64,000 nucleotides of DNA from a virus (taxonomy: Duplodnaviria; Heunggongvirae; Uroviricota; Caudoviricetes), in IMG/VR virus record IMGVR_UViG_3300032167_000028, one strand, 5' to 3'. Below the pieces are notes generated by a model that had not been told where the DNA came from, did no database searches, and worked only from the letters and a program-made list of their open reading frames with translations. A program made the position numbers and the translations under genes. Positions 45,026 through 64,000 of this stretch are shown here, piece after piece (the stretch's first letter is position 1; each line of letters begins with the position of its first letter).

Positions 45026-45649
45026 GGTATAACCTTCTTTCTGTTAAATGTTTGTCAATGTGTTCATGAGTGACTATGATCCCGTCAGTGGTCTTGACTC
45101 CGGCGGTTGAGCATCGTCGGCAACTGTTGATCTCTATCAACTGTATTCATTATAAGGGATACAAGGCTATTTGTCAACGGCTTTTTTGAATTTTTTTCAG
45201 ATTTTTTCAAAGAAATTTTTGCAGGATATTTTGCAGGATTGCTTGCATTTTACTTTCACACTTTAGCGTGCTAAATCCTACTAAGGGGCAGGGGTTTCAG
45301 GCGTCTGTTAGCCCTCCCTAACGACCGACCCCGTGGTCTCCACATTATCCGATAGAATTCAATTTTAAAAAATCAGCACCCATCTCACCAATCAAAAAAT
45401 TTCACTACAACTGTAATTCAATCAAATTTCCCCGCACTCTATTTTCCCCAAATTTTACTTTTTTGTAAAAAAGTGATAAAATTTTAGTATAAGAAAAAAC
45501 TAGACAGAAATAAACTGTCAAGGAGCAAAGACGTGAAGAAACCCTACTCACTAAATTTTGAAATAAAGACGGCAGTGGATAGAAATTAGGCCGTAATAGA
45601 TATTCTCGATTCACTCGAAACCGATCCTTCGTAGAAAGAAATAGAACAA

Positions 45650-46798
45650 ATGACCGACTATATTCTTTTTGGTAAGGATGAAAAGTTTTTGTCGGCCGTC
45701 GACACCAAAGACATTTTATAGCCCGAACGCCGTTTCAATTCTTGGAAAACCAAAGCAGAAAAAACCGAATCTCTTGATGCCCTGCTGGAAGACCCAGTAA
45801 CAGCCCCCGAGATAGAATCAAAAACCGCCGACCGCGGGCCACGTTACAAGGTAGTTAAGCCCGAGATTAAGCGTCCCACCTACGATGCTGATGGCAACAT
45901 GATTGATCCCGGTGACTCCGATGTACCCGGCATGGTGGAGTTATGGGAGATTATTGATGACCTCCAGAAACGCTATGATATGTATAGGGGTAAAATTCCT
46001 CCGGATGACAACATTAGGGCACATCCAATAAATAGTTATCAGTTGTATAAGATGGGCCACATGCTAATAGACATTAGACGTCACCAATACTATTTAAAAG
46101 ACTATTGGAAACCCACAATCAAATTCTTCAACATCCAGCCACCCGGAAAACCCATACTAGATTTCAATGGCAACACCGGTCTATGGTTGTCGCCCGAAGA
46201 ATGGTGCGAACGAAAACGCAACCCTAAAGAATTTGACCTTGAACAGCCGCCACTACAAGATACACCTACAGATGAGCAAGGCCACATTTATTGGAAAATC
46301 AGTGATAACGAAATAGATTATGAAAATCCCGATCACATTTTAGCAATTTTAGATAACTATTGCTCATTATTAAAACATTCCTATGGCGACCTTCACAGTC
46401 CTACTCGCATCATGTGTTGGGACATAGAATGGTTAATTGAAAACGCTGGTCTCACCGATTTAGAACATTTCCTTCTTACCCAACGTGTAGCACATAGAAA
46501 CATATTTAGAATACAAAAAGCCCTATTGGAAGACGACATCGTAATGAGCGACGTTCAAATCCGTACCTATACAAGAAATAAAATCCCAAAGAAGCTCGCC
46601 CAAACCGCCACCCGCCTACGCCTAGAGTGTCAGATGCGTAATGGTGAAATAGAAACACTCAAGTGTTCCAAGTGCGGCAAGTCCTATCCAAAAGATCCTT
46701 TCTACTTTGCACGTTCTCGCGACAAGCGTACCGGCTACTGTAGTCAATGTAAGGCTTGTCAGAAAGCAAAACGTGATGCGGCTAAGGAGGCGAAGTAA
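45650..46798 (+). CDS. putative DNA-binding protein with C-terminal zinc ribbon; N-terminal extension reads through one TAG (45719-45721)
   Basis: ATG 45650 in frame with ORF 45899..46798; 83 upstream codons have no stop except one TAG and read protein-like; C-terminus CSKCGKSYPKDP...CSQCKAC. The alternative start at 45899 cannot be excluded. Confidence 0.45.
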
Positions 46799-46800
46799 TT

Positions 46801-47733
46801 ATGCCTGTATGCGGCAAATGTAAGATAGATAAACCTATTACAGAATTTGTACCTACCAAATCACCATTTCATCCCAAGGATCGCTCCTTGATGTGTTTAA
46901 CTTGTTTGGAGAAATTGGTTGATCCCAAAGACTTAAATTAGGTCGACAAAATGTGCCAGTGGCTAGACATTCCTTTCTTTGTCAATGAATGGACCCGGAT
47001 ATGGAACGCGGCGAAAGAACGCACATTACACGTATATGTAAAGCTACTATCAGACAACCCTTCCTACACGTCCCTTGATTGGTCAACCGTAAATGAAAAA
47101 TGGCAAGATGCAGAAACATGCGGCACCCTAATTGATAATGTGCCTGTTGTTGCCGAAGGCTGGCGACGCGAAATGATGCGTAAATGGCCATCCGACCAAG
47201 AACGTGATGATGAAGACTATCATTATTTAGAAAATTTCTATAACGATCTTTGCACCACCCAAAATCTTGTAAGTGCTACCCAACGTGACGATGCCAAACG
47301 CTTGTGCGAAGTTGGACTGTTAGCTACCAAAAAAATTCGTGCCGGTCTTGATGCCAAGAATGAAATGGCAATTTACCACAACATCGTTAAGACCGAAGGT
47401 TTTGAACCGAAAAACGCCAAAAATATTGGAGACTTCGACAGCGTAGGAGAACTCTACACTTGGCTTGAAAAACGTGGCTGGAAACCAAAGTGGCACACCG
47501 AGCCGCAAGATAGCGTGGACTTTACTATAAAGAATATACAAAAATATCTACAACGTCTTGTTACGGGCGAGGGTGCCCTAGCAGACCAAGTAGAAAATCG
47601 CCGTAAGCAACTTGAACTTGCTAACCGTCTTGAGGAAGACTACGATACTCCACTTGAAGATGAGGACGTCGAAATCGAGTATGAAGGTGCGGCCGAGCTG
47701 GAGGATGAGTTAGATGACGGAGCTCTTAACTAA
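46801..47733 (+). CDS. putative terminase small subunit-like protein with N-terminal zinc ribbon; in-frame TAG at 46939-46941
   Basis: AAGGAGG RBS + ATG 46801; MPVCGKCKIDKP...CLTCLEKL then TAG then in-frame continuation into ORF 46951..47733; sits immediately upstream of TerL. Confidence 0.5.
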
Positions 47734-47857
47734 CACTACCTCCCGCCCCATTTAGGGGGAATTAAGAGATGGAGTCCCTATTGAAAAAGGTGTAGTAGTT
47801 ACTGAAGATTTCCTAGAGAGAAACGAAAATCTTTTTTAGCAATATAGTGCCTACTTT

Positions 47858-49498
47858 ATGTTGTATCCAGATTTATTTTTGGATCTGATCGCAACCAAAG
47901 ATTGTCCAATTAAATTCTACTACTACCAGCGAATTATGTTGCGTGCGATGATGCGTTTCCGTTATTTTTACGGAACCTTTACTCGTGCGACATCTAAATC
48001 GTTCTTAGCAATTATTTCACAGTATCTTGCTTGTATGTTCCTGCCGCGTTCTAAGCGATTTGTAGTATCTCAATTCAAGAAAGCTTCTCTAAGTATTACG
48101 AAGCAGAAGCTCGAAGAAATTTGGACATACTGGCCACTACTGAAAACAGAAATTCTTACTCAACATATGTCAACAGACTATATTGAGCTTATCTTTAAAA
48201 ATAGTTCTACCCTACAAATTCTTTCTCTCAGTGCCTCCAGCCGTGGACAACGTGCTTCTGGCGGTCTGATAGAAGAGGCTGCTCTTATTGATGGTGACCT
48301 GTTGGCAGAAGTTATCATTCCTATGATGAACATTCCTCGTCAACATTCTTCTGGCGGTTCGAATCCAGAAGAACCGCACTCTCAGCAGGTGTATATTACA
48401 TCGGCTGGCAGTAAGAATACTTTCGCCTATGAACGTTTGATAGAACTTACAACATTGGCTGTACTTGAACCACAAGATTACTTCATATGCGGTGCAAGTT
48501 ATGAACTACCGTTGAAATATGGATTATTCGATAAAAAAACAATTCAAGACCAAAAGCTTAGCTCTACTTTCTCTAGTGATGGTTTCGCTCGTGAGTCTAT
48601 GAGTATTTGGACAGGTGGTTCAAGTGATTCTTGGTTTAATACAAATAAGCTAAATAAGTCTCGTTCTCTAATGCATTGTGAGAGAGATTACAATCTCACT
48701 CAGAAGCAAGTAGATGCGGGCTGGTTCTATCTAATGTCTGTCGACGTTGCTCGCTATGGTGAGAATGATACTTCTGTATTCGTCTTTAAGGTGCGGCCTA
48801 GGGATAACGGCTGGAAAAAGGACGTTGTATATACAGAGAACCTTACTAAGATGAATCTTCTCACACAAGCCGCGAGATTAAAAGAACTTAATCGTATTTA
48901 TCGTCCAAAAGAAATCGTTATCGACGGTAACGGCGTTGGTGCCGGTTTAATTGACGCGATGGTTGTTCCTTCTTTCGGTAAGAATGGTGAAACCTATGAA
49001 CCAATATACGTAACTAACGATCCTGATAATTATCCTATTCCACGCGGTATGGATAGGCTTGCTTCTATTTATAACATTAAAGCCAATGCAACTCTTAACG
49101 GTGAAATTTATTCTAATCTCTATGTTCAAATAAACAGTGGTAATGTTGGACTATTAGCTGCTGAGCGTATCGTCAAAGAAAAACTACTTGCAACTAAAAA
49201 AGGACAACGAATGAATTATTTAGCAAGAGAAAAATTTCTCTTACCTTATATCATGACTTCGCGACTTATAGATGAGATGAATAATCTAAAATTAAAAGTT
49301 GGTGGAGCTGCCGGAACTGTTGCCGTCGAACAAATTTCTCGACGTATTAACAAAGACCGTGTATCCGCCCTCTCTTATGGATTATATCGTATCAAATACT
49401 ATGAAGATAAAGAAGTGCGGAGAAAGCGTACCGGAATAACGGATGCCTCAAAGTTAGCTTTCTTTTCTTCTTCTAAAAAATCTAAACGGAGGCATTGA
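47858..49498 (+). CDS. terL: terminase large subunit
   Basis: deviant Walker A GTFTRATSKS, Walker B LIEEAALIDGD, coupling motif ITSAGS, nuclease-domain Asp cluster DVARYGENDTSVFVF; 546 aa. Confidence 0.8.
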   Translation: MLYPDLFLDLIATKDCPIKFYYYQRIMLRAMMRFRYFYGTFTRATSKSFLAIISQYLACMFLPRSKRFVVSQFKKASLSITKQKLEEIWTYWPLLKTEILTQHMSTDYIELIFKNSSTLQILSLSASSRGQRASGGLIEEAALIDGDLLAEVIIPMMNIPRQHSSGGSNPEEPHSQQVYITSAGSKNTFAYERLIELTTLAVLEPQDYFICGASYELPLKYGLFDKKTIQDQKLSSTFSSDGFARESMSIWTGGSSDSWFNTNKLNKSRSLMHCERDYNLTQKQVDAGWFYLMSVDVARYGENDTSVFVFKVRPRDNGWKKDVVYTENLTKMNLLTQAARLKELNRIYRPKEIVIDGNGVGAGLIDAMVVPSFGKNGETYEPIYVTNDPDNYPIPRGMDRLASIYNIKANATLNGEIYSNLYVQINSGNVGLLAAERIVKEKLLATKKGQRMNYLAREKFLLPYIMTSRLIDEMNNLKLKVGGAAGTVAVEQISRRINKDRVSALSYGLYRIKYYEDKEVRRKRTGITDASKLAFFSSSKKSKRRH

Positions 49499-49503
49499 TA
49501 AGC

Positions 49504-50997
49504 ATGGCTGAAGAGACCAACAAAAAAGTTCGTCAACTAACGGATTTCGAAAGTTTCGCCAAGAAAGTCGCTTTGAAAGTGCCACAACAATCTACGAGCT
49601 ATCGTAACAGATTCGGTAGAAGCTATACCTCCATTTCGTCTGACGGATTCTCCAAAGAGGAGATCCGCCAGATTTTAGAATCTGGAGATCCTAATAGCAT
49701 ACGTGAATTATCGAAATATTTTAGTAGATTTTGCGGTACCTATTCTCGACCTTTGCAATACTATGCAACGTTACTTAATTACGGTTATGTAATTGTTCCG
49801 CATTATGACATTGATTCAAAACCTAAGAAAATAAAGGCTGCGTACAAGAAAATCTCTTAGTATATTAAGAACTTTAATTTTGATTATATTCTTCCTAAGA
49901 TCAATTATATTGTTCTTACTGAAGGTATATACTATGCTTTGTTAATTGAAGATTCTGAAGAACGTCCAGTTTTCTATCGTTTACCGGCAAAGTATTGCCG
50001 CACTCGTTTCGCCGATAGTTACGGATTACCAATTCTTGAACTTCATACTTCTTATTTTGAGTACATCACTGACTCTGATGTTGAACGAAAAGAAATTTTA
50101 AAGCTATTTCCTAAATATGTTCAACAATCCTATAACAGTCGTAAAGAAAAATTAAAGTGGGTAGAAATTCCTCCCTCCGAGGGCGGTTTCTGTTTCTACT
50201 TTACAGAGGATCAAACTCCTCCCTTTGTTTCTTCCACTTTAGCCGCGGCTGAGTTAGAAAATGCTCGTGATCGCGAAACGGAACGAGATAACAATGAGTT
50301 GGAGAAGATTTTAATTCATAAGCTTCCAATTAATAAGGAAGATGGTGAATTACTTTTTACACTTCCCGAAGCAGAAGTTTTACACCAAAGTATTTGTAAT
50401 ATGCTAGAAGATAACGAGACTATTAATGTATTAACTACTTATGGTGAAGTTAGCTTAGAGGGTGTACAGGATACCGAAGCTTCTTCTACTGCTTCTTCTA
50501 CTCGTTTAGAGAAATACCTTAATAGTGTTTATGATGAGTTGGGTACTTCTTCCGCAATCTTTAATGCAGATAGTGCTACCACCGCTCTAACTTTCTCTAT
50601 TAAGAAAGATATTTCTTTAATGTATGCTTGGAGTAAGCAATACGAATTAGCTGTTAATTCTATTCTTCGTCGCAAGGCAAAGAATGATCAACTTTATTTC
50701 TCTATAAAGTTCCTTGCTACATCTTCTATTTTCCGTAAAGAAGATGCGGACATGTATCTAAAGATGGCACAGTATGGTTATCCACGTTCTACTGTATCTG
50801 CGACAATTGGTCTTGATATGGTTGATTTGGCTCAAGTTACCGACTTTGAAAATAATGTACTACATCTTGAAAAATCTATGATTCCTCTACAATCTTCTTA
50901 TACAACTCCTGGTGGAGAAAATTCTACAGGTTCGGGAAAAATTTCTGAAAAGAAAACAACTGGTCAAGACCTTACAAATGAAGGCGGAAGGCCATAG
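49504..50997 (+). CDS. portal protein, with in-frame TAG at 49858-49860
   Basis: GGAGG RBS + ATG 49504. ORFs 49495..49860 and 49939..50997 share one frame, and the 26 codons between them have no other stop. Size (~497 aa) and position after TerL fit a portal. Confidence 0.7.
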
Positions 50998-51065
50998 AAA
51001 AGTGTAGAAGAACGTGCGGACCGAACCAATGCAAATATTGACGGTTCAACGTAAGGAGTGAAATA

Positions 51066-52487
51066 ATGTCACGAGAGATACCAACTCGTTTTGATGCATC
51101 CTTCGTAGAAGGTAGCTTTCATTCCACTGAAGACCCAGAAATACAGCTCGGTAGGGTAAGAGCGTTCTATAAGTATTCTAATCGCAATGGCAGTTATATT
51201 ACCGACGAATATGCGGAAAAGCTTGCTTTATCCGCTTATATGAAGCCGGTATTTGGCTGTTATAGTCATGAGCACAAAGACTTTTTAGGGCATGAGGGGC
51301 CTGAGAATGTCAAGGGTTACGGTTTCGTAATTCCAGGCTCACTTAAATGGGAAGACCATTTAGATGATGACGGCGTAGTTCGCACTTATGCTACATATGA
51401 TGTATTGGTTTGGGCAGAATATTGGGAAGAAGCTAAGTATATTTTCCAAAAAGCTCAAAGCATGGAAATTGACAAAAATACTGTTCAGGGTGAATGGCGC
51501 TTTATGAACAATGGCCCCATGGAAGAATTTGTTTATACAAAGGGTGTTATGGCTGGCTTTTGTGTTTTAGGAGACATGAAGACTCCTTGTTTTGAAGGTG
51601 CGGCATTCTTCTCTATGGACGACGAAAGCTATGTGAAATTCACAAAGGCTCTCGAAAAATACTATTCCAATAATGGAGGTAAGAACGCTATGAACGTAAA
51701 GGTAGCGGGACTTGAGCATGAGAAGTTCAATGCAATTTTTGCCGCTCTAAATCCCAACTTTAATGAAGAAGGCGCTTACTCACTCAATTTTATTCCTTGT
51801 GAAATCGCTGACGAGTACTTCTATGCTCTCGCTTGCGACAAGGCTGGCAAGGTAAATAAGTATTCTTACTCTTTCAATGAGGAGAATGAGCTAACTGTCG
51901 AATTAGTTGAGGAAACTGACTATCAAGCGGCAGTTGCTGATTTTGAGATTGTTAAGGGTCAGCTCGCAACCGTACAGGCCGAGTTCGAAACTTTCAAGAC
52001 TGAAAATGCTACTGCGCTAAGTGAAGCAGAGGGCCGTTATAATGAGCTAAATACTCAGTATGAAGCTCTCATGGGTGAGAAGTCTACTCTCGCAACTGAG
52101 TTCGAAAATCTTCAGGCTCAGTTTAATGAACTACAGGCTCAGTTTAATGAGCAACAAATTAGCTTTAATAATCAGGCTGCCGTAATTGCTGAGAAGGATG
52201 CTACTATTGCTACTCAGTCTGCGACTATTACTGATTATGAAAATAAAGAAAAGGATGCCCTAATTAATAAGTTCTCTACTTGCATGCCTACTGATATTAT
52301 TCAGGAGATTGTTGAGAAGAAGGACACCCTAACTATTAATGAATTAAATACTGCTCTTTCTATTGAGTATACTAATTTCTCAATGGCAAAGGAACAGAAG
52401 CAGGAGCTACGTATTCCAAACAATAATCCTCCTTCCGATCCTTCTAAAGAGAAGCTATTTAATATTTTAAATGCCTACAAGAAGTAA
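51066..52487 (+). CDS. putative scaffolding / prohead maturation protein with C-terminal coiled coil
   Basis: AAGGAG RBS; C-terminal heptad repeats LATVQAEFETFKTENATALSEAEGRYNELNTQYEALMGEKSTLATEFENLQAQFNELQAQFNE. Confidence 0.5.
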   Translation: MSREIPTRFDASFVEGSFHSTEDPEIQLGRVRAFYKYSNRNGSYITDEYAEKLALSAYMKPVFGCYSHEHKDFLGHEGPENVKGYGFVIPGSLKWEDHLDDDGVVRTYATYDVLVWAEYWEEAKYIFQKAQSMEIDKNTVQGEWRFMNNGPMEEFVYTKGVMAGFCVLGDMKTPCFEGAAFFSMDDESYVKFTKALEKYYSNNGGKNAMNVKVAGLEHEKFNAIFAALNPNFNEEGAYSLNFIPCEIADEYFYALACDKAGKVNKYSYSFNEENELTVELVEETDYQAAVADFEIVKGQLATVQAEFETFKTENATALSEAEGRYNELNTQYEALMGEKSTLATEFENLQAQFNELQAQFNEQQISFNNQAAVIAEKDATIATQSATITDYENKEKDALINKFSTCMPTDIIQEIVEKKDTLTINELNTALSIEYTNFSMAKEQKQELRIPNNNPPSDPSKEKLFNILNAYKK

Positions 52488-52506
52488 ATTACGGAGGTAA
52501 TTGTTT

Positions 52507-53052
52507 ATGGCTCGTTTTATGATTGACAAGTACGGCGTTCTCGAAATGAACCGTGCTGAATATTTAAAGACAGGCATGATCGTCTCCCAGACTCCACTAA
52601 GTGAGGAATTCACTGAGGCCGCTCCTTGCGAGAACGGTATGTGGGTAGATGCCAATAAGGCTAATGACGCGATCAAGCTAATTTCTGACGAAACCGAAAT
52701 CTACGGTATCGTTTATACTACTGAGAAGGATTACACTGGTCTACGTCCAGCCCTAAAGTGGTTCCATCAGGTTGCTGGCGACTATCCACGTGTAGGTATT
52801 CTAAATAAGGGCGACACCTTTACTACCAACACCTTCCATTATGATTTCGCAAGTGAAACTGTTGCTGAACAGTGGGCAGAGCTAAAGAAAGCTTTCAAAG
52901 CTGGTGCCCTATATGTTGTTCCAACCGTTGACGATGGTGCTCCAACTGTAACTGCTGAGAAGCCAGCTGAGGGTCCATATGCTGAAGTCGTTAAGCTCTA
53001 TACTGTTCCTGCTGGAACCCCTGGTATTAAGTACGTAATGGTACGCGTCTAA
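52507..53052 (+). CDS. head protein (decoration or scaffold-associated), 181 aa
   Basis: GGAGG RBS; position between scaffold-like gene and major capsid. Confidence 0.45.
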   Translation: MARFMIDKYGVLEMNRAEYLKTGMIVSQTPLSEEFTEAAPCENGMWVDANKANDAIKLISDETEIYGIVYTTEKDYTGLRPALKWFHQVAGDYPRVGILNKGDTFTTNTFHYDFASETVAEQWAELKKAFKAGALYVVPTVDDGAPTVTAEKPAEGPYAEVVKLYTVPAGTPGIKYVMVRV

Positions 53053-53068
53053 TTTGGAGGTAAATATT

Positions 53069-54100
53069 ATGGATATGACATTACAACAGCTACATGACTG
53101 TGCGATGGGTCGTAATATTCCAGCCGAGTTCGCTAACCAGAACGTTGATTACGAATCCGCCCTTCGCGATGAAATTAAGAAACTCGTAGGTACCTATTCC
53201 CTCTATCGCAAGAATAAGTACGAGTTATTTGATCTACTCCAGCAGAATGCTGAAGAGATTCTCCCACGCAAGGTTCTTGACCTAATTGGTTCTTTTGCTG
53301 AGGTTGCTCAGTATGGTAATAATGATCGTCTAAGCTTCAAGGTAAAGCGTGGCGCACAGCGCGGCAAGCAGTTCGTTACCCGTGCTACTGAGTCCGGTGT
53401 CTACGAGACCTTCCGTCTCGATTACGACTACATGGAACTCACCAGCCACACCATCGGAGGCGCTGGTATCATTGATTTCGAGCGCTACCTCGATGGTCTT
53501 GAGGACATCGCTGAGATCTATGATATTATCCTTGATGGTATGATGACCGCTATCTTCCGTGACATTCAGGGCTGTCTAGCTGCTTCTTGGAATGATACTG
53601 GCCGTCCAGCCAAGAATAAGGCTTCTGCTAATACTTTCGACTGGCAGAAGATGAGTCAGCTCGTTCAGGTTGTAAGTGCATATGGCGCTCCAGTTATCTA
53701 CTGCTCCGCTCTATTCGCTGCTACCATGCTAAATGTTGTTGCTACTCCAGATGGTTGCAAGGTTTCTGATAAGGAAATCGACGAGATTCGTGAGTATGGC
53801 TACATTGGTAAGTTTGCTGGTGCTCCAGTTGTCGTTATGCCAAATTCCTTCGAGGATGAGACTAACGAGAAGCTAGTATTCGACCCACGTTTTGCTTATG
53901 TAATTCCAGCTGGCAAGGAGAAGATCGTTAAGGTTGCTCTAGTTGGCCAGACCATCATCGACGAGTGGAAGAACACCGATCGTTCCCTCGAGATTCAGGG
54001 TTACAAGAAGCTCGGCGTCGGCATTGTTGCCGCACCACACTATTGGGGAATCTATTACAACTCCGGCATTGATGCTTGGGGTCATCCAGAAATCGCCTAA
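53069..54100 (+). CDS. major capsid protein (putative, HK97-fold size class)
   Basis: GGAGG RBS; 343 aa; followed by the strongest hairpin in the operon. Confidence 0.6.
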   Translation: MDMTLQQLHDCAMGRNIPAEFANQNVDYESALRDEIKKLVGTYSLYRKNKYELFDLLQQNAEEILPRKVLDLIGSFAEVAQYGNNDRLSFKVKRGAQRGKQFVTRATESGVYETFRLDYDYMELTSHTIGGAGIIDFERYLDGLEDIAEIYDIILDGMMTAIFRDIQGCLAASWNDTGRPAKNKASANTFDWQKMSQLVQVVSAYGAPVIYCSALFAATMLNVVATPDGCKVSDKEIDEIREYGYIGKFAGAPVVVMPNSFEDETNEKLVFDPRFAYVIPAGKEKIVKVALVGQTIIDEWKNTDRSLEIQGYKKLGVGIVAAPHYWGIYYNSGIDAWGHPEIA

Positions 54101-54120
54101 TTTACTATTAATATAAATTT

Positions 54121-54146
54121 CGGGGAGGGCCTCCGCCCTCCCCTCG
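54121..54146 (+). terminator. GC hairpin CGGGGAGGGC-CTCC-GCCCTCCCCTCG after capsid gene (attenuator/terminator)
   Basis: 10-bp GC stem; weak T-tract. Confidence 0.45.
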
Positions 54147-54167
54147 GAGTTAAAAGGAGTAATTATT

Positions 54168-54617
54168 ATGAGTAAGATGAAAATTAAAAACGTCAGCAAC
54201 TTTGCTATTAGTATCATTCTTAATAACGTTCGTTATCGCCGAGATCTAAATCCTGGTCAGGAGACTTCTCTTCCAGAAGATGTAGTTGAGGAATTTAATT
54301 TTGATCCCGGCTGCCGCTCTTATGTAAAGTCCGGTTATATCAAGGTTATTACTGAAGACCAGGAAATTAAGGATGTCTTTGGAGACACTCCAAAGGATGT
54401 AGATATTGATATTGCGGACCTTCTAACTAATAAGTCTGTAAATGAACTTGCAATTGCTCTAAAGAATGGCTCTCCTGCTTTTAAGGAAAAAGTTGTTTCT
54501 GAAGCAATTCGTCTATCTATTACTGATGCTGCTCGTTGTTCTTTAATCAAGCACAATTGCAATGTAGATGTACTAAATGCTATTACTCTACAGCGCTCTG
54601 TTGAAACCAACCGATAA
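54168..54617 (+). CDS. hypothetical head protein (149 aa)
   Basis: AAAGGAG RBS. Confidence 0.5.
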   Translation: MSKMKIKNVSNFAISIILNNVRYRRDLNPGQETSLPEDVVEEFNFDPGCRSYVKSGYIKVITEDQEIKDVFGDTPKDVDIDIADLLTNKSVNELAIALKNGSPAFKEKVVSEAIRLSITDAARCSLIKHNCNVDVLNAITLQRSVETNR

Positions 54618-54631
54618 GGAGGTGCGGCCTC

Positions 54632-55075
54632 ATGGCTACTCCTTTACAAAAAGTTTACGATGCCTTTCTGGCTAAACTTGAAGAAGACGAGTGGATGCTA
54701 GCAGAGGACGTGAACGTCGTAGAAGATGATTGGAGATAGATTTTGGACGCGGCAATTTTCCGCGTTCGCTATCCACATGTGTCGTTAGACTACGATGCTG
54801 AAACTGGCATTTTTATCGACACTCTTGGTAATGATGAAATTCAATTACTTGCAAATCTTATGAAGTCTGAATGGATTAATCGTACTATTGCAGTATGGGA
54901 TAATTTAAGACAATTATATAGTGATAAAGATTTCTCTCAAGCTAATTTCCTTGACAAGCTTAATAAAACAGGAGCGCAGGTTGATGATACTTGTCGCCTA
55001 ATGTTAGATAGGTACGGCCGTGCTGTACGTTATAAACCTAACAAAATCTTCGGCAAGTTAGCCGGAAAGGGTTAA
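54632..55075 (+). CDS. head-tail connector / adaptor-like protein with in-frame TAG at 54737-54739
   Basis: AAGGAGG RBS + ATG 54632; MATPLQKVYDAFLAKLEEDEW... then TAG, then same frame as ORF 54743..55075. Confidence 0.55.
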
Positions 55076-55082
55076 GTTTGGT

Positions 55083-55343
55083 ATGGAAGGCTATTATAAT
55101 AAATTAAAGGGCCGCCTTTATGGGCTGCTCTGTGAAAAGGAAAAAGAAGGAGCTTGGGAAAAATTTTTGGATACAATTATAATTGAGCTTATGGGATTTC
55201 AATCTCACAATAAGACAATTAATTATTGGACTTTAATTGGTAAATTAGGTTCATTACGTTATCTGAGTTATGAATATTTTCGTAAAACAGTTTTTGAATG
55301 TATGAACTTAGTTACTGAATTAAGTAAAAATGAGTTACTTTGA
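55083..55343 (+). CDS. head-tail joining protein (putative)
   Basis: 86 aa, position. Confidence 0.4.
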   Translation: MEGYYNKLKGRLYGLLCEKEKEGAWEKFLDTIIIELMGFQSHNKTINYWTLIGKLGSLRYLSYEYFRKTVFECMNLVTELSKNELL

Positions 55344-55893
55344 AACCTATAAAAAGCGTGCTTCTTTTTTAGGTATAACACCTCAAGAACGTGCTTTTCA
55401 ATCTGGTATATTAGAATTTCGTCGTTATCTTAAATACAATTCTCATACCGTAAGAGGTTTGATTTGTGAAACAACCGGCCAAATATTTGACGGTGTTATC
55501 TTAACGGATAAAGAAGATGAAAATCGTGTATCACAAATTCTTTTGGTGGATTTAGAAACACCTTTAAAAAAGGGAGATTTAATTCTTTGGAATAATGAGC
55601 ATTGGCTCATTTATCGTTCTACTACTTCTTCTTATCAACCGCATCAAAAGTTCTATATGGTTCGCTGTAATCACTATATTAAATGGGTAGATAATGGTGA
55701 ACTTAAAGAAAGTTGGATTTATCTCTTAGGATCTAAAGATTCTAAGATTAAAGATAATTTCCGTACATGGCACAATGTAATTACTCCTCAGCCAAACAAA
55801 TATATTCAAATTATTTTGCCGCATGTATTAATGCCAATAAATACTGAGATTATTGTTATGGATGAAGCTTGGTATCTTGTTGATTATGATTAG
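55330..55893 (+). CDS. head closure / tail completion protein (putative)
   Basis: 187 aa, position. Confidence 0.4.
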   Translation: MSYFETYKKRASFLGITPQERAFQSGILEFRRYLKYNSHTVRGLICETTGQIFDGVILTDKEDENRVSQILLVDLETPLKKGDLILWNNEHWLIYRSTTSSYQPHQKFYMVRCNHYIKWVDNGELKESWIYLLGSKDSKIKDNFRTWHNVITPQPNKYIQIILPHVLMPINTEIIVMDEAWYLVDYD

Positions 55894-55917
55894 AATTCAG
55901 TTCCTGGTGTAATTTTT

Positions 55918-56271
55918 ATGTCTTTTACTGAAACTAAAGTCAATGAACAACGTGATGACCTTGAAAATAAAATTGCAAACGCTGACCAAATTATTATAGA
56001 AGAACCTGAAGATACCACAGGTATCGTAGGTAAAGATATGATTAAGGTTGGTTATAGTGCTAAATATGAACTTTTAAACGCGGAAGGAGATATTAAATTT
56101 AGTATCTCTGATAAGAAGCTGGCTACAATAGAATATAAAACTGGTTCTAACATTTGTACTGTTAAAGCTAATGAAAACAACAAACTTGGTTTTATAACTT
56201 TAACAGCTGAGTACAATGAAGCAGTTTTTACCAAACAAATTGAAATTATTCCTTTGTGGAAGGTGAATTAA
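55918..56271 (+). CDS. hypothetical tail protein (117 aa)
   Basis: position. Confidence 0.4.
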   Translation: MSFTETKVNEQRDDLENKIANADQIIIEEPEDTTGIVGKDMIKVGYSAKYELLNAEGDIKFSISDKKLATIEYKTGSNICTVKANENNKLGFITLTAEYNEAVFTKQIEIIPLWKVN

Positions 56272-56760
56272 ATGGAAAGTCAGCGTCGATTTGCAGTAAT
56301 GGGTATTAATTTGTTTAAGATATTAAATAAATTATGCCATAATCAAAAGCTTTGTCGTTTATTAAAATATCAAAGCCCAAATCCTTTTAGTGAAGAATTT
56401 GAAGATGTAGATGGTTCTGAACTACTTACAAAACAAATTCTTTATGTTCCTAAATACCCAGAAGACGAAGTTGAAAGCTCTTATGTAATGGCTGTATTTA
56501 ATAATTTTATAATTAATCCTACTAATCCCGATTTTAAATTAACGACAATTCGATTTGAAGTTGTTTGTCCTTATACTGAATGGATTATAGATGAAGGTAA
56601 TCTACGTCCATATTTATTAATGCAAGAAATTGACGATATGTTTAATCAAGCAAAATTAAATGGTTTGGGCAATCTTCAATTTGTTAAATGTGAACCGCTA
56701 ACTTTATCACCACAGATGGGTGGCTACTCTATGGTGTATCAAATCAATGAGTTCAATTGA
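56272..56760 (+). CDS. tail terminator-like protein (putative)
   Basis: 162 aa, position before major tail protein. Confidence 0.4.
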   Translation: MESQRRFAVMGINLFKILNKLCHNQKLCRLLKYQSPNPFSEEFEDVDGSELLTKQILYVPKYPEDEVESSYVMAVFNNFIINPTNPDFKLTTIRFEVVCPYTEWIIDEGNLRPYLLMQEIDDMFNQAKLNGLGNLQFVKCEPLTLSPQMGGYSMVYQINEFN

Positions 56761-57517
56761 TTCTAAAGTAATGCGTTATCTTCATGGGCTTCCTGTGATA
56801 TTTGATGATATTTGTGTAATTCATTCTCCTCGTTTACATGATATAGCCACTGCAGGATTGGATAAATTTTATCAATATATATCTGCGACCTAGATCTCTA
56901 AACCAACTAAGTTAGAAGATCCAGAAATTAAAAAGCTACTATCTCCGCTTTCTGATTTTGAGTATTTGCTACTTTTAACTTAGATGGATAAAGAGGATAA
57001 TAAGTTAATAAAGGATGCCTTTGAATTTTTCACGAAAGAAAAAATTACCATTCTTATAAATCCGCCTAGTATTGTTTTCGGTCCTATAAACGAGAAACGT
57101 ATTCTTACTAAAGAAAAGTTTTATAATTTTTAGGAAGAGGTCAAACTTGCGTGTGCTATGAGAGATCCTCATGAATCTACAATTGAATTTCTTGACTCTG
57201 ATACTCCTCGGGTAAGGGCTTTAAAAGAACAAATGCTTCGAGGGCGAAGAGAACGAGAAGAGGCTAAACGTAGATAGCGTTAGAAAAGTGGGGATGGTAA
57301 TTTAGAACTTTCAGACTTAATTGCTTCTTTAGCAATTGGGAATAATTCCTACAATTTAATAAATATTTGGGATTTATCATATTATGCTTTTCAAGATCAA
57401 TTCAAAAGAATGAGTTGGCATGAAGAGTTTGATATAAATACCCGAGCGTCTCTTGCAGGCGCGAAACTTGATAAAAACAAACTTTCTCATTGGATAAAGA
57501 CAATGTCTTTTAATTAA
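56747..57517 (+). CDS. hypothetical tail-associated protein containing six in-frame TAG codons
   Basis: ATG 56747 to TAA 57515-57517 = 256 codons in one frame, with TAA as the only non-TAG stop; sequence reads protein-like throughout (…KEQMLRGRREREEAKRR…). Confidence 0.55.
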
Positions 57518-57531
57518 GGAGGAAAATTAAC

Positions 57532-58437
57532 ATGGCTGTAAATATTTTTGAGCGCTATGGTATTAAGGAAGTTGCTAACGTATACTTCGAAGCTCTCGCT
57601 GACGAACCAAAGGCGGGTATTACCAAGGGCGATATCGTACTATACCTAGATACTCTAAAGGTTTCTACTGTTGAGACCACTGCTGAGAACGTTTCTGCTC
57701 AGGGTGGTTGGGGCAATCCAAAGCTCGTTACTTGGGATTACGGCAAGGACATTAACGTTACCCTAGAGGACGCTGTTATTTCTTGGGAAGAGATGCGTAT
57801 CCTAATGGGTGCGGTTATGAACAAGGCTACCGCTGATAAGCCTGTTAAGATTCGTAAGAATGCTCAGGTTATTATTGAGAAGCCAGCTGATTGGGCTGCT
57901 GCTGAGCTCAAGTATGTACCAGTTGAGGGTGAAACCAACCGTGCCGGCCTAACCGATAATGGTAAGCATAATCTACCAGAAGCTGGCCTTGCTGGCGTTC
58001 CATTTAAGTGGGTTGATATGTCTCGTGGCCTCCGTGGTACTCAGGCCAATTTTGCTGCTAACGCTCCTGTTGAAGGAGAAGATTATGATAGCGTTGACGA
58101 GACTTCTGGTGCATTCCTCGATGAAAACGGTAACGTAGTAACCTTTAAGGTCCGTGTATTCTGGGAAGATAATGCTACCGCAGAAGCTCAGGGTGCTACC
58201 GAGCTCGTCATTTCTCCAGATCGTTATCCAGGTACCTATCGTGTTGTTGGCGACTCCCTCATTCGTTCCGAGAAGACTGGTATGGACGAGGCCTTCCAGT
58301 TCGTTATCAACAAGGCTAAGATGCTATCTGAAGTTACTCTTACCATGCAGGCAGAGGGCGATCCTTCTACCTTCAATATGACCCTCAACGTCCTTCGTGA
58401 CGATGACGGCAACATGATGAGCCTAATTAAGTACTAA
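57532..58437 (+). CDS. major tail protein
   Basis: AAGGAGG RBS; 301 aa; position before chaperone and tape measure; followed by a strong terminator. Confidence 0.65.
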   Translation: MAVNIFERYGIKEVANVYFEALADEPKAGITKGDIVLYLDTLKVSTVETTAENVSAQGGWGNPKLVTWDYGKDINVTLEDAVISWEEMRILMGAVMNKATADKPVKIRKNAQVIIEKPADWAAAELKYVPVEGETNRAGLTDNGKHNLPEAGLAGVPFKWVDMSRGLRGTQANFAANAPVEGEDYDSVDETSGAFLDENGNVVTFKVRVFWEDNATAEAQGATELVISPDRYPGTYRVVGDSLIRSEKTGMDEAFQFVINKAKMLSEVTLTMQAEGDPSTFNMTLNVLRDDDGNMMSLIKY

Positions 58438-58464
58438 TAAATTGCTCCTTGTGAGCATTTCCAA

Positions 58465-58492
58465 GGGGAAGCTTCGGCTTCCCCTATTTTTT
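58465..58492 (+). terminator. intrinsic terminator after major tail gene
   Basis: GGGGAAGC-TTCG-GCTTCCCC + TATTTTTT. Confidence 0.75.
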
Positions 58493-58510
58493 GTACCCGG
58501 AGGTTTTATA

Positions 58511-59326
58511 ATGAATTTTTTACAGGAAATGGGTATAAAAGACTTAGAACATGTTGTATTAAAGGCTAAACAACGCATGTCTCTGGGACGTAGAACTTAC
58601 GAACCAGGAGAACCAATTCTTTATTTTGAAAATATTTAGATTGCAGTATTATCAGAAAACGCACGAATGGTCGCGGCCTAGGGTGGTTATTTAAATCAAC
58701 CACGGGTTGTGTGGGAAGATAGAGATAATACAACATTTTAGTTTTCTAATGGCACTTTAAATCAATTGAGTTTAAATATGCTTTTAGAAGCAAATATGTT
58801 ACATGAAATGAAAGTGTTTGTGCCGCATCATGGTGTCTATGAATTAGATGAAGAAGGAAAGCTATGGTTACCATATGAGATAAATAAATCTCGAAAACGT
58901 TTTTATTCTATTTTTGAAAGAGAAAATCTTCAAGATAAAATAACCCCTATTTCTGAAGAAATTATAGATGGTCAAACTTTAGTAACTTTTGATTCTATAT
59001 ATGAAAATAAAACTATTGTCGCGGATTACTATTTTATCCCAAAAAATGGCGCAATAACTTATACAATGGACAGGGAACGCAGACCGAACTTATATACTTT
59101 GGAAGCGACCTTCTATTTGAAGGATGAAAATGAAGGGCTTCTTCATACTGGAATTTTAGAGATGCCTAAAGTTTATATAATGAGTAATATTAACTTGCGT
59201 ATGGGAGAAAGAGCTGACCCCACTGTGGGCACGTTCCGGATAGTGGCAATGCCAGATGACTTAGATAATCATGAAGCAACAGTATGTAGAATAACATATT
59301 TAGACGAAGATATCTATGGTTTATAA
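58511..59326 (+). CDS. tail assembly chaperone-like protein with three in-frame TAG codons
   Basis: GGAGG RBS + ATG 58511 is in frame with ORF 58766..59326; only TAG stops in between. Confidence 0.5.
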
Positions 59327-59330
59327 TATA

Positions 59331-59364
59331 AGAGCTCCCGTTAACGCGGGAGCTCTTTTTTTGT
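59331..59364 (+). terminator. intrinsic terminator
   Basis: AGAGCTCCCG-TTAA-CGCGGGAGCTCT + TTTTTTT. Confidence 0.75.
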
Positions 59365-59385
59365 TATAAGGAGGGAAAAGGAAAT

Positions 59386-62300
59386 ATGGCAGTAAAGATT
59401 ACAATACCTGTTAATTTTCAAGATAGTGCTTAGTCGTATAAGAAAATTATAGCTTCTTTGCAGTCTGAATTAAAAAAGGTTAAACCTGGTACTGCGATAT
59501 ATGAAAATATATCATCTTAGTTAAAAAAGGCCAACAGTTTAATTTTAAAACTGGAAGGAAGTATTGGCTAGGGCGTGGCCTCTCATGCTGAAATTGAAAG
59601 AATGATTAAAGATTTTTCTTCTTTACAGACAGTGGTAGAAAGTGTTAATGATGCCTATACTACAATGTCTATTAAGAATTTAAATATAAATTCTGAAAAT
59701 TTTGGCAATTTAGCAAAAGATTTAGTTGATGCTGCATCACAATTAACTAAAGCTAAGAAGGCTTTAACAGATGCCGAAAGCCTTAATATTGGAGAGCTTT
59801 TTTAGGGTGATGCTAATATTGGCAAGTTTACTGCAAAACAACTTACCAGTAAAGGTAAAAGTTTTTATGATAATTTGGCTGCTCAAATTGAACGTCTTGG
59901 AATAAAATCTAATGAAGCAGAACAAGAAATAAAAACTCTTGAACAAAGTTTATTAGATTTATAGCAATAGGCTAATAATTTAAAAAGCGATTCTTTAGCA
60001 GAATCTGTCACAGGAATTGTTGGAACTGCAGGAAGTAAGACAGCTAAAAAAGGCCAATTTGTTTCATTGGCGGATGCACAAACAAATTTATTAAACATTA
60101 CTCAAAATAAATTTTTCACTAAGAAAGGTCTTTTAAAAGCGGGAGTAAGTCAAGATTAGGTAGAAGATTGGTTAAAAGTTTTTGGTATTTCAGATGAATC
60201 AATTGCAAAAATTCTTGAAACCAGTAAAGATCGAATTGAACGTTTACGTCAAGCCATTAATACTGAATTTACCAATACTAAAAAAAATGAATTAACCATT
60301 AAATATCGCGATGCCGCAGCAGAATCTGTTCAACGATAGGCTGTTGAAAGACAAATTGCAGAAGTTAATGCAAATTTAGCAACTGCTCGTTCTACTGCAA
60401 AAGATTATGGTGGAGAATTAAAAGGTATCCAAGAACAATTTAATTTATTAAAAGATAAATTAATTAAACGTGGTGTTCTTGGAGCCACTGAAGGAGAAGC
60501 TGGAGATTTATAGAAATAGATTGATGCTATTGAATAGCAAATGGCTTCTTTACAATCAGCTATTGTAGCACAAGGACCGAGGGCGGAGCATAATTTACCA
60601 GATACTCCAAGTAGAGAAGCAACTGATTACGTTTTTGATGCTGAACGTAATGCTCAACAATTTAAAGATAATTTAAAATCGGCCATTGCTCATTGGCTAA
60701 GTGCTTAGCAAATTATTACAATGGTCAAAGAGGGTATTCGTCAAGCTTGGACAGATATTCAAGGTCTTGATAAGGCAATGACGAATATTGCAGTAGTTAC
60801 AGATATGTCGGTATCTGACCTTTGGGGAAAAATTAACGATTATATGGCAATTGCCCAAGAATATGGTGTAACTACTCAAGGTGTTTATGAAGTTTCTTAG
60901 CTCTATTATCAACAAGGTTTAAATACTAATGAGGTAATGGAAGCAACTACAGAAACTCTTAAAATGGCTCGTATCGCAGGTATGGACTATGCTGAAGCCG
61001 CTGATGCAATGACTGTAGCAATTCGTGCATTTAAGATGGAAATGTCTGATGCATAGATAATCACTGATGTTTATTCTAAAGTTGCAGCAGTTACGGCATC
61101 TGATAGCCAAGAACTTGCTATTGCTATGAGTAAGACAGCTTCTTCTGCTGAAAGTGTAGGAAGTAGTTTTGAAAATACCACTGCTATGTTAGCTGTTATG
61201 ATTGAAACTACTCGTGAATCTGCTCAAAACTTAGGTAGCGCGTTAAAGTCTATTATTTCTCGTTATGGTGAAATGAAAACCGGTCTTACTATTGACAGTG
61301 AGGGCGAAGCAATTGACTACAATAAAGTAGATACTGCTTTACAATCTGTAGGTATTTCTATTAAGGATGCTCAAGGTCAATTCCGTGATTTTGATGATGT
61401 AATTTTCGAACTTTCTAAAAAGTGGGATAGCCTTGATAAAAATACTCAACGTTACATTGCTACAATTATGGCAGGTAACCGTCAACAGTCCCGTTTCATT
61501 GCTTTGGTTGATAACTGGGAACGTTTAGAGGAAGTAAGCGCAGCAGCATATGATAGTGAGGATGCGGGTTTATTACAATATGCTAAAACACTCGATAGTC
61601 TTGAAACTAAATTAAATGCTCTTTCTACAAGTTTTTAGCAATTTTATATGAGTATAATTAATGGTGATACTTTTAAAGGTGCCATTGATTTTATTACTAA
61701 ATTACTAGACGGATTAAATAAGATTGGCTCTTGGACTTCAATTTTTAATATAGCTCTTTTAGCACAGAGTTTAAAAACAGTTGGAACTCTTTTAGTTAAT
61801 GGTTTTTCTGAACCAATGTCTAAAGTTATTTCAGTTTATAGATAGCGTTTTGATGAAATAACAAATTTAGCTTTTATTAAAGGTAGGGAAGCAGGAGAAG
61901 CACATTATAAAGGTTTTCTTACTGCCACCGATAAAACCATACCAAATTCTATTCCTACATAGACTTCTATACCAATACCTTCGACAAAAATTGATTGGTC
62001 TTAGGGTATTGGAAAAGGATTAATTAATTGGATTAAAAAAAATCCAGCAAAATTTAGTTTGGGTGCTTCTGCCGTAGGAAGTCTTGCCACTATAGCAGGT
62101 ACTAAAACGGCTGAAAAAAATTAGAGAGCTGGTTCACTATTATCAATGCTTGGTAGTTCCGCGTCTGGGGCTAGCATGGGAATGTCAATTGCTGGTCTTA
62201 AGGGAGCACTTGTAGGAGCTATTGCTGGAGCATTAGCTAATCTTCCTGCCGTAATAAATAGTTTCGAATTAGACACAATTCTACAAGAAAAAATAGATAA

Positions 62301-64000
62301 AGCTAAGGAAGTTTTTGATGATGCTGAAATTGTAAGAGCTACGAAAAAAGAAGAAGCTCGTAATTTAGCCGCGACAATTGATAATTTAAAAAAATTACAA
62401 CAAGCACGCTATTCTAGTGAAGAGGCTGAAAAAGCTTTTATTGAAGCTTCTAATGCCGCATTTGAATAGTTTCCTCAATTAACCGCCACTTTTGATGAAA
62501 CTGGTAATGCAATTGTAGACGTAATTTCTAAATCTTCTAATGCAGAATATTTATTAATGAAAGCTCGTCAACAATCAGCAAATGCGACCTTAGATGCAGC
62601 TGAGAAAGAGGGTTATTTAAGAACTCAAGAAGAGAAATAGTCTAAAAATGAATATGCACGTTTTTATACTACTGATGTTGCTTCAAGACAATTTTATGAT
62701 ACATTATATGGTAATTTAAGTTTTGCAGATAGAGAAGTTATTAGTTTTGATGCTAATAAATATCGTGAAACCAATGTTTATTCAATGATTAAAGGCTACA
62801 TTGAAGAAATTTATTAGGCATATGGTACAGAAGATATACGTAGTATTAATTTAATTAATGCTCTTAAAAAATCCTTAAAAAGTAGATATAATGTTGATTT
62901 AACTAATAGTAATGATATTTGGTCTGATTTTGAAGGGATAATAGCTGAAGCTAGAAAAGCTTGGACTACTGACTAGAGTCAAATAGATTCAAATAATGCT
63001 TCAATTATTTCTAGTTACTTAACTCAATTAGATTATGAAATTGATCCAACTCAAAGCGAAAGTTGGAAAACCTTATAGGGCGTAAATGACTATTTTGAAA
63101 AATATATTATTGATAAGGTTACAACTGCGGAAGAGTTATTTACTATTGATGAAAAAAATAATAAAAAAATATTAAATGAACAAGGTAAAGCTGCAATTTA
63201 GAAAGCTTATAATGACTTTACAAAATAGATTACTGAAGTATAGACATATTTAAAGAAAAATTTACAAACTGATGAATATGAAAAAGTTATTAAAGATATA
63301 CAAAGTAAAAAAGTTTCTCCTAAATTAATTTAGGAAAGTTTAAACAAGATTTTTAATAATTAGATTCCAAAGGTAATTTAGCAATACTTAGATTCTTATA
63401 GTAAAGAAATAGAAGAACAAGCCAAGTATATTGCACAGTATGCTATTACAAATCTTCCTACACTTTTTGAATGGACTGATGAAGAAAACTTAACCGAAAT
63501 TTTTACAAATCAAGCCGGTTATTCAAGTGGTATTTCTAATGTAATTAAAGATGTTGGAAATCTTGTTGATTCTGGAACAATTGACACTTTATCAGGTTAG
63601 GAATGGATTAAAGCATATATTGATATTTTTGATTCTATTGATACAAATACAAGTTTAACAGAAAAATAGATACATGAAGCAAAAGCTATTCTTACAAATG
63701 AGTCTTCTGATCTTTTTAGTATTAGTGGTTTATTTGATATAGTAACTGCTTTAAAAGATATTGGTATTAGTCCAGAATCAATTGGTTTAAATAATTTAAA
63801 CGCACTGTCTAATAATTTTAATACAGAATTTGCTTCTTTATCAGAGAAAATTGGTAAAGGACTGGAGTCTCTTACTAAAGTATTAAAAAATGCTGCTGAT
63901 GGTTTTGATACTGAAACTGCATCTAACTTAGCAAAATAGTTAAATACAACTTTAAATGATACTAGTAAATTCGAATTTATTGACGGTAAGTGGTTTATAA
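59386..64000 (+). CDS. tail tape measure protein (5' ~4.6 kb; continues past window end), densely populated with in-frame TAG codons
   Basis: AAGGAGG RBS + ATG 59386; TMP core motifs ...VSxLYYQQGLNTNEVMEATTETLKMARIAGMDYAEAADAMTVAIRAFKMEMSDAxIITDVYSKVAAVTASDSQELAIAMSKTASSAESVG (x = TAG); more than 25 TAGs in frame and no TAA/TGA. Confidence 0.8.

Follow-up and report, generated by a model that had tools for sequence, protein, structure and literature searches.

We analyzed a window of 64 kb (64,000 nucleotides; G+C content 39.6%) from a phage of the class Caudoviricetes (IMG/VR record IMGVR_UViG_3300032167_000028), in which TAG codons occur repeatedly inside the late, structural genes and appear to be read as an amino acid. 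In the whole window, 56 in-frame TAGs were found in 11 late genes, and TAA and TGA still end every gene. When TAG was treated as a sense codon, the summed length of open reading frames (ORFs) of >100 amino acids (aa) grew from 23,752 to 34,122 codons across the window, and an open frame of 1,556 codons appeared at its right end. The phage genome is approximately 174 kb in size, and a JGI contig of 173,889 bp, extending from about −43 kb to +131 kb, covers the window; its relatives in IMG/VR measure 132–181 kb. Gene identities were assigned with PHROG profiles applied to translations of the window and with precomputed Pfam families on public gene calls, and a megablast search of the late region against GenBank phages returned no match, nor did IMG/VR when searched for the exact sequence pattern of the right end of the window. 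Many of the comparisons below involve the relative L009 (IMGVR_UViG_3300018475_000110), whose nucleotide identity to the window phage is 71–77% and whose capsid protein is 88% identical. L009 is itself rich in in-frame TAGs, and another relative, L012, carries almost none.

A rightward head-tail operon of 16 plus-strand genes runs from position 45650 to the end of the window, and nine of these genes, which together hold 49 in-frame TAGs, are continuous only if TAG is read as sense; the original prediction, made from the sequence alone, had proposed at least eight such genes. The operon opens with a sigma-factor-like gene of 382 aa (45650–46798; phrog_5767, 'sigma factor', E 9.7e-14; ENA call of 382 aa), which has a C-terminal zinc-ribbon/HNH-like region and a single TAG at 45719 (codon 24), opposite CAG in L009. 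The second gene (46801–47733, 310 aa) had been taken for a TerS; the TAG at 46939 is indeed present, and the gene proved to be YonG-like instead (phrog_3314, E 2.7e-36, aligned across the TAG; Pfam YonG_N on the ENA call). It is followed by the large terminase gene, TerL (YonF; 47714–49498, 594 aa; phrog_15503, phrog_24618 and phrog_2; the ENA call gives the same 594 aa), for which tblastn detected terminases of SPbeta-like phages at 31–40% identity. TerL had been listed among the TAG-free genes; we found TAGs at 47753 and 47837 (codons 14 and 42), both of which are also TAG in L009 and have conserved flanking residues, and the PHROG match begins at residue 25, upstream of the second one. The terminase gene of L009 is split by an insert of ~1.1–1.3 kb with a 194-aa cysteine-rich ORF (L009:3175–4482), which looks like an intron or homing-endonuclease insertion; unlike this gene, TerL of the window phage is uninterrupted. 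The portal gene (49504–51054, 516 aa; phrog_2739, E 9e-69) contains the expected TAG at 49858 and a second one at 50995, which is opposite CAG in L009; the PHROG match covers residues 16–514, across both codons.

Downstream of the portal gene lies a TAG-free group of head genes (51066–54617), recognized from Pfam YonD_N and YonB on gene calls and from the codon table. It includes a YonD-like gene (51066–52487), a gene at 52507–53052, the major capsid gene YonB (53069–54100) and a gene at 54168–54617, and their Gln codons are nearly all CAG. TAGs are again present in a small head/neck gene (54632–55075, 147 aa, TAG 54737; phrog_3853, E 1.9e-21, residues 1–128, spanning the TAG) and in a virion gene that was absent from the original prediction (55330–56271, 313 aa), whose TAG at 55891 is also TAG in L009 in the identical context YLVDYDxNSVPGV (x, TAG). 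The YomV-like gene (56747–57517, 256 aa; phrog_4051, E 6.6e-34, residues 9–253; Pfam YomV_2nd) has five TAGs (56891, 56981, 57131, 57275 and 57281), one fewer than had been counted. The tail tube gene YomU_Tube (57532–58437, 301 aa; phrog_2729, E 4e-49; Pfam YomU_Tube) is TAG-free, and next to it is a paralog of 271 aa (58511–59326; phrog_2729, E 5.6e-13) with TAGs at 58637, 58679 and 58739, the first opposite CAA and the last opposite TAG in L009. This paralog had been described as chaperone-like, an assignment that does not hold since both genes match phrog_2729. A terminator scan identified a strong hairpin after the tube gene (58464–58485) and a 12-bp hairpin before the tape measure gene (59330–59357), both of which would reduce transcription into the TAG-rich tail genes. 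All TAGs whose positions had been given (45719, 46939, 49858, 54737, 58637, 58679 and 58739) were recovered in frame.

Pfam families on public gene calls included YonG_N, YonD_N, YonB, YomW, YomV_2nd, YomU_Tube and PhageMin_Tail. Because these families and the gene order match those of SPbeta-like phages, the predicted virion module is of the SPbeta type, composed of YonG, TerL/YonF, the YonE portal, YonD, YonB, YomW, YomV, YomU and a long TP901-type tape measure.

The strongest example of in-frame TAG was the tape measure gene, of which the window contains the first 1,538 of 4,022 codons (59386–64000, plus strand; phrog_4211, E 3.5e-52, residues 271–1502; ENA call of 4,022 aa). As predicted (more than 25 TAGs and no TAA or TGA over 4.6 kb), this frame contains 33 TAGs, zero TAA and zero TGA. 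The +1 and +2 frames of the same locus contain TAA, TGA and TAG in numbers of 65, 9 and 38, and of 105, 109 and 27, respectively (74 and 214 TAA/TGA). The median piece between consecutive TAGs is ~40 codons long, and in-frame starts with a Shine-Dalgarno-like motif are missing from the 10 codons behind each of the 33 TAGs, so that separate genes with their own ribosome-binding sites, a possibility raised in the original prediction, were not seen here. Homologs do not end at these codons either: PHROG matches run across TAGs in TerL, the portal, the YonG-like and YomV-like proteins and the tape measure. An assembly error was also considered there; the window DNA recurs at 99.99–100% identity in many samples that were assembled independently (JGI and ENA), and because of this near identity the TAGs are not an assembly artefact. 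ENA gene calls on this DNA read TAG as sense and yield products of 382, 310, 594, 516, 147, 313 and 271 aa and the 4,022-aa tape measure, and JGI standard-code calls on identical DNA are fragmented into small pieces.

Two further genes with in-frame TAGs were identified on the minus strand among fibre genes. One encodes a fibre-like protein of 1,005 aa (14752–17769) with six TAGs (first bases 17085, 16914, 16653, 16488, 16362 and 16308); it is built of ~100-aa repeats, FN3-like by eye, which continue in frame across the TAGs, and standard-code JGI calls leave a 1.8-kb gap without genes at this place. The other encodes a fibre-like protein of 625 aa (18645–20522) with one TAG (first base 19934) and an N-terminal domain common to other fibres (phrog_19976). 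Under the standard code, the calls of these two genes break off at the first TAG, beyond which the frames stay open for 776 and 428 codons, respectively. A larger fibre-like protein of 2,171 aa (5477–11992, minus strand; phrog_14959, E 2e-147, and tail-fibre/hyaluronidase-type N-terminal matches) is free of TAG. At least four consecutive fibre-like genes on this strand (5477–22006; 2,171, 202, 625 and 484 aa) have a similar N-terminal domain of ~60–80 aa (MAEK..N.RI..K.D...NW) and different C-terminal parts; the 484-aa protein, whose start diverges from the literal motif, matches phrog_33094, and the other three match phrog_19976. A glycosyltransferase gene is located at 12280–13248 on the strand opposite to the fibre genes.

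The distribution of TAG among late genes is uneven. The share of TAG among Gln-type codons is 56% in the YomV-like gene, 33% in the tube paralog and 36% in the tape measure gene, and TAG is absent from the capsid, tube, YonD-like and YomW genes; thus, the predicted rise of TAG density toward the tape measure is not monotonic. The TAG-free genes for abundant proteins use CAG (capsid: CAA 1, CAG 13), and the TAG-rich genes are almost devoid of it (tape measure: CAA 54, CAG 5, TAG 33), a scarcity that fits an origin of TAG from CAG by C-to-T change. Outside the tape measure gene, TAGs favour the N-terminal third of the genes (mean relative position 0.34; Kolmogorov-Smirnov (KS) test against a uniform distribution, p 0.014, n = 16). 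The base that follows sense TAGs, judged informally, resembled general first-base usage of codons and gave no clear context signal.

We further asked which amino acid is encoded by TAG. The comparison with L009 used only columns whose ±6 neighbouring residues were ≥50% identical; in these, TAG had TAG as its partner in 5 cases and another codon in 46. Of these 46 partners, 23 were CAA or CAG, compared with a Gln background of 3.5% in the same columns (binomial p 1.4e-21), and Glu codons came second (5/46). In a BLOSUM62-based likelihood, Gln led Glu by 23 natural-log units and Arg and Lys by at least 30. Similar evidence came from 505 tape measure homologs with PF10145. The original prediction had favoured Gln on the basis of two tape measure motifs, and both agree with it: all 13 closest homologs have Q at residue 505 (VS-x-LYYQQ, nt 60898), as they also do at residue 751 (SF-x-QFY, nt 61636), and in the SDA-x-II column Q is the commonest residue (80/120 homologs). 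Q is also commonest at residues 441 and 557. In the 1,005-aa fibre, sister repeats (PTIVxNSDGTYTASW, PTIVQNNNGTYTATW, PVITxNNNGTFDISW and PTITENYDGTYTARW, where x is TAG) have Q, E or N at the position equivalent to TAG. The codon substitutions in L009, the tape measure columns and the fibre repeats are three independent lines of evidence that UAG is a sense codon in this phage, most likely for Gln, which is by far the best-fitting amino acid.

The remainder of the window differs from the late modules in both codon use and promoters. An early block of approximately 38 short genes (25301–45200, mostly on the minus strand), delimited from the codon table and a promoter scan, has no in-frame TAG. 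Between 25.3 and 45.3 kb, we detected 9 perfect and 19 eleven-of-twelve matches to TTGACA-17-TATAAT, i.e., 28 near-consensus sigma-A promoters, most of which have an extended −10 TG and nearly all of which are on the minus strand, approximately one per short gene. The region contains 86 promoter-like sites, compared with 39.8 ± 5.3 in shuffled sequences, and about twice the expected number of terminator-like sites (40 vs 18.1 in shuffles). In contrast, neither the rightward late region (45.3–64 kb; 53 found vs 56.8 expected) nor the fibre region (5.3–25.3 kb; 59 found vs 58.5 expected) had an excess of promoters or a single perfect site. A perfect promoter at 45177–45149 points leftward from the divergent junction, and the rightward operon has weak matches only. 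The TAG-free genes therefore look as if they could be transcribed at once by the host polymerase, and the TAG-bearing modules look devoid of host-type promoters; the temporal order of early and late genes is suggested by this difference in promoter type. The original prediction had confined TAG to late genes. With respect to promoters this agrees with what was found, as the TAG-bearing modules lack a promoter excess and the TAG-free block is packed with promoters; the two fibre genes at 14752–17769 (six TAGs) and 18645–20522 (one TAG) had been missed. Its list of TAG-free genes was correct for the capsid, the tube, the early block and the 2,171-aa fibre, and wrong for TerL.

It had also been stated that TAA and TGA still terminate genes, and this was borne out by standard-code calls in the first 45 kb of the window, which end in TAA (42), TGA (15) and TAG (5). 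Two of the five TAG ends are internal to fibre genes, one is a read-through in a gene with sigma70 region 4, one has TAA two codons further on, and one belongs to a doubtful ORF in a tRNA leader; at most two of them could act as true gene ends, one of which is that with the downstream TAA. The latter gene (869–1300, minus strand) ends in MExFI (x, TAG), with the TAA following the TAG two codons later, and it terminates safely under either reading of TAG. The sigma70-region-4/helix-turn-helix gene (23558–24379, minus strand; Pfam Sigma70_r4_2 on the JGI call) has a TAG (first base 23995) after 128 codons, and its frame remains open for 144 codons more, to a TAA located just before a strong bidirectional terminator (23521–23554). 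The product of this gene could be short as long as the standard code applies and 273 aa long when UAG is decoded; another possibility is that the part downstream of the TAG forms a separate gene that starts with TTG, as in the JGI call. No homolog of the 144-codon extension was present in the loci of relatives.

The explanation that best accounts for these observations, to which we assign a probability of about 0.88, is that the late genes use UAG as Gln (genetic code 15) and the early genes the standard code, in a phage with an SPbeta-type virion module. UAA and UGA are then the only terminators left, and the TAG-bearing genes are separated from the promoter-rich early block. Early genes, short and each provided with its own host sigma-A promoter and terminator, would be translated by host ribosomes under the standard code because they contain no TAG. 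The late modules, which consist of the rightward head-tail operon and the leftward fibre genes and appear to have no host-type promoters, would yield only short fragments from their TAG-bearing genes as long as a UAG decoder is absent, since TAGs outside the tape measure gene tend toward the N-terminal third. A phage suppressor tRNA(CUA), probably encoded outside the examined DNA and charged with Gln, may then outcompete release factor 1 late in infection, thereby timing or insulating late-gene expression. We infer this gating from published models of recoded phages.

Several observations weigh against this reading. Neither ARAGORN nor the Rfam tRNA model detected a tRNA(CUA), and a custom search for an anticodon arm with CUA upstream of a T arm found nothing in any sequence; these searches covered the 64-kb window, 8.6 kb of its left flank, a further ~10 kb on a contig that encodes the marker protein at 95% identity, and the tRNA arrays of eleven relatives, so that ~82 kb of the ~174-kb genome were examined for a decoder and ~100 kb lay outside the search. 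Likewise, no called gene of the window is annotated with an RF-1/PCRF or aminoacyl-tRNA-synthetase Pfam family, although such accessory genes are optional among code-15 phages. The original prediction had suggested looking for a suppressor tRNA(CUA) and a release factor; neither was detected in the window or in ~18 kb of flank. With regard to the amino acid, V is opposite TAG in one repeat comparison of the 625-aa fibre, and distant cultured relatives (30–40% identity) have K, S, E, Q or T at TAG columns, a mixture that is uninformative on this point. The N-terminal bias of TAGs, which would be expected if TAGs abort translation early, is a hint obtained from a small-sample, post hoc test. Finally, the distribution of TAG could simply reflect where this codon is tolerated.

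The tRNA genes that were found are either ordinary sense tRNAs or oddly built. The sole tRNA cluster of the window (33317–33742, minus strand; ARAGORN, Rfam and folding) consists of tRNA-Leu(CAA) (33660–33742), tRNA-Lys(UUU) (33392–33467) and, 3 nt after the latter, a weak tRNA-like element (33317–33388) which ARAGORN reported only at lowered thresholds, as Leu(AAG). The acceptor stem of this element is good and its T arm canonical, and a D arm is missing; CUA occurs in a loop of 6 nt (GCCUAA) that is closed by a stem of 5 bp (GCCCU/GGGGC). Perfect early promoters drive the element together with tRNA-Leu and tRNA-Lys in one transcript. Homologs of the element were found neither in the loci of relatives nor, by pattern search, in IMG/VR. 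At the position of this cluster, next to a Band_7 gene, the eleven relatives have arrays of 3–11 tRNAs, none with CUA. A G+C-rich leader and spacer of ~190 nt flank tRNA-Leu(CAA) (33468–33659 and 33743–33930, minus strand) and are transcribed from a perfect and an eleven-of-twelve promoter at 33947 and 34041; folding predictions gave stable structures for both (−48 and −65 kcal/mol, values not compared with shuffles). Beyond a weak match to Y RNA-like YrlA (E 1.4), no Rfam family was detected in them, and neither an HDV-like or theta ribozyme nor another Rfam family was detected around the tRNAs. A similar weak YrlA match (E 0.049) adjoins odd tRNAs in the left flank, which is supplied by a contig of the same phage (L017).

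This flank has approximately five tRNA genes, including tRNA-Glu(CUC), tRNA-Ile(UAU) and a class II tRNA-Leu(UAG), and two of its tRNA genes bear insertions of 40–50 nt within the cloverleaf, ~4.4–4.7 kb to the left of window position 1. The first (L017:17026–17140) was recognized only by the Rfam model (45 bits) and has 44 extra nucleotides in the anticodon stem, without which the stem pairs perfectly over 5 bp around the loop CUGUUAA (Asn, GUU). The second (L017:~16888–17022) folds into a class II tRNA resembling Tyr(GUA); it encodes CCA and has an additional hairpin behind the D arm. Since ARAGORN misses both, tRNA counts for the window phage are underestimates. The ~10-kb extension had no further tRNA, and the DNA around close homologs of the tape measure comprised structural regions only. 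Beyond the position of the left end of the window, a close relative (L065:5538–8404) and a more distant one (L066:1407–10030) have a cluster of tRNA-related genes that encode a YqeY-domain protein (PF09424), an RNA-ligase-like protein and NADAR and, in L066, also a Thg1-like protein (PF04446). YqeY domains are tRNA(Gln)-binding accessory domains, and the YqeY protein of these relatives could bear on the charging of a UAG decoder with Gln, if this role applies. Given the unusual tRNAs of the window phage and the tRNA-handling genes of its relatives, we also considered that UAG is decoded without a canonical suppressor tRNA, by a non-canonical or processed tRNA assisted by a phage tRNA-handling toolkit. 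This appears improbable; if true, it would be relevant to the apparent lack of a suppressor in over half of the TAG-recoded phages, as a TAG suppressor was detected in only 40% of TAG-recoded genomes (10.1101/2021.08.26.457843).

The alternative explanations differ in whether they concern the code, its meaning or its purpose. That the TAGs are genuine stops, in genes that are split, decayed or affected by sequencing or assembly errors, agrees with the fragmented calls of the JGI standard-code callers. However, the frames are interrupted by TAG only and never by TAA or TGA, homology carries on across every tested TAG without a change of frame, start signals are missing after the TAGs, identical DNA occurs in many independent assemblies, and TAG positions are kept in the diverged relative L009; this explanation is effectively refuted already. 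It is also very unlikely that TAG stands for another amino acid, such as pyrrolysine, Glu, Lys or Leu. K, S, E and T do occur at many TAG columns of distant relatives, and Glu is second among the L009 partners (5/46), but the likelihood lead of Gln (23 natural-log units over Glu and at least 30 over Arg and Lys) and the presence of Q at conserved core columns of the tape measure in 13/13 closest homologs argue against it, and no pyl genes were seen among the called genes.

A different possibility is that the host itself reads UAG as sense, so that the phage matches the code of its host and no switch takes place during infection. The ~82 kb examined, with neither a phage suppressor tRNA nor a release factor, would be compatible with such a host. 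However, TAG is present in only 11 of ~75 genes and in none of the ~38 early genes, and abundant proteins avoid it completely, whereas ~90% of genes contain the recoded codon in phages that match a recoded host (10.1101/2021.08.26.457843). In addition, the hosts of cultured phages with this virion module are Bacillota that use the standard code, and we regard a recoded host as highly improbable. A more serious competitor, although one that we would put forward only tentatively, accepts that TAG is read as Gln late in infection and denies that its distribution is regulatory: with a suppressor present at that stage, CAG-to-TAG transitions would have been fixed by drift in weakly expressed late genes and purged from early and highly expressed ones. 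It thus disputes the purpose and not the code itself. The near absence of CAG from TAG-rich genes and its use in TAG-free abundant genes, quantified above for the tape measure and the capsid, are as expected from such drift, as are the location of TAGs in variable polar columns of distant relatives and the fast turnover of TAG positions, only 5 of which are common to L009. On the other hand, TAGs cluster in the N-terminal third (KS p 0.014), and two TAGs in TerL and three others were kept across 25% nucleotide divergence.

This phage strategy is real and has already been well described, and the locus is a new example of it and not a new phenomenon. What is new is that the TAG-free block at 25–45 kb carries 28 near-consensus sigma-A promoters and the TAG modules none above chance. 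In practical terms, the locus needs translation table 15, because the standard code breaks the terminase, the portal, the tape measure and two fibre genes, as seen in the JGI calls. The understanding of the phenomenon itself is unchanged, and the main added value consists of a correct annotation and a sharply delimited early/late partition. The unusually clear boundary between the two recommends this phage as a natural system in which to ask whether late-gene translation is timed by recoding, and a ~174-kb SPbeta-type phage is added to the set of phages with TAG-to-Gln recoding.

Borges et al. reported as their central result that late genes recode TAG to Gln and early genes keep the standard code. 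Their survey takes in large clades of Firmicutes-infecting phages from animal guts, including 'Agate', of which lineages of ~127 kb are named, and the mean sizes listed for the large clades end at 154 ± 27 kb (10.1101/2021.08.26.457843). Like the code-15 phages described there, the window phage has TAG concentrated in structural genes, early genes that can be translated with the standard code, and hardly any TAG left as a terminator. It is likewise large (~174 kb), with structural genes in more than one recoded module, and its close relatives also differ in recoding load (heavy in L009, almost none in L012). The endonuclease-like insert in the terminase of L009 is reminiscent of the intron endonuclease noted in Agate; the agreement with Agate is one of genome size, recoding pattern and Firmicutes-phage-like virion genes only. 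In contrast to the phages of Borges et al., the examined part of the window phage genome yielded no suppressor tRNA or RF2, and we did not find the dense array of consensus sigma-A promoters in the TAG-free block described in that work.

The use of UAG as Gln in late and structural genes is also known in crAss-like phages, an unrelated lineage with different virion genes and Bacteroidetes hosts, in which code 15 was confirmed by proteomics (PMC9523058); for the window phage, the code is deduced from sequence. Another recoded phage is phAss-1 (proposed Phassvirus; GenBank OQ749652), a 136-kb gut phage of the siphovirus type related to Enterococcus and Bacillus-type phages, which uses TAG as Gln in TerL, portal, tape measure and fibre genes and has 36 tRNA genes, including three tRNA-Sup(CTA) (PMC10607447). 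Unlike phAss-1, the window phage has two tRNA genes and a weak element in the window and approximately five in the left flank, none with CUA. The TerL of phAss-1, annotated as three fragments, is a detectable homolog (34.7% identical) of that of the window phage, and the two have no match at the nucleotide level. Members of Phassvirus share at least 80% nucleotide similarity (PMC10607447), and because of the low TerL identity and the missing nucleotide match the window phage does not belong to the same genus.

The same gene order as in the window phage, i.e., YonG-like, TerL (YonF), portal, YonD-like and capsid followed by the tube and a very long tape measure, was observed in SPbeta-like Geobacillus virus E3, Alicyclobacillus phage KKP_3916, Brevibacillus phage Sundance, Bacillus phage FADO and Enterococcus phage VRE9_4. 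These cultured phages have TerL proteins 31–40% identical to that of the window phage and the same families (YonB, YonD_N, YonG_N, YomU, YomV and YomW). Their genes are annotated as intact under the standard code, whereas the window phage needs TAG as a sense codon for the same virion module.

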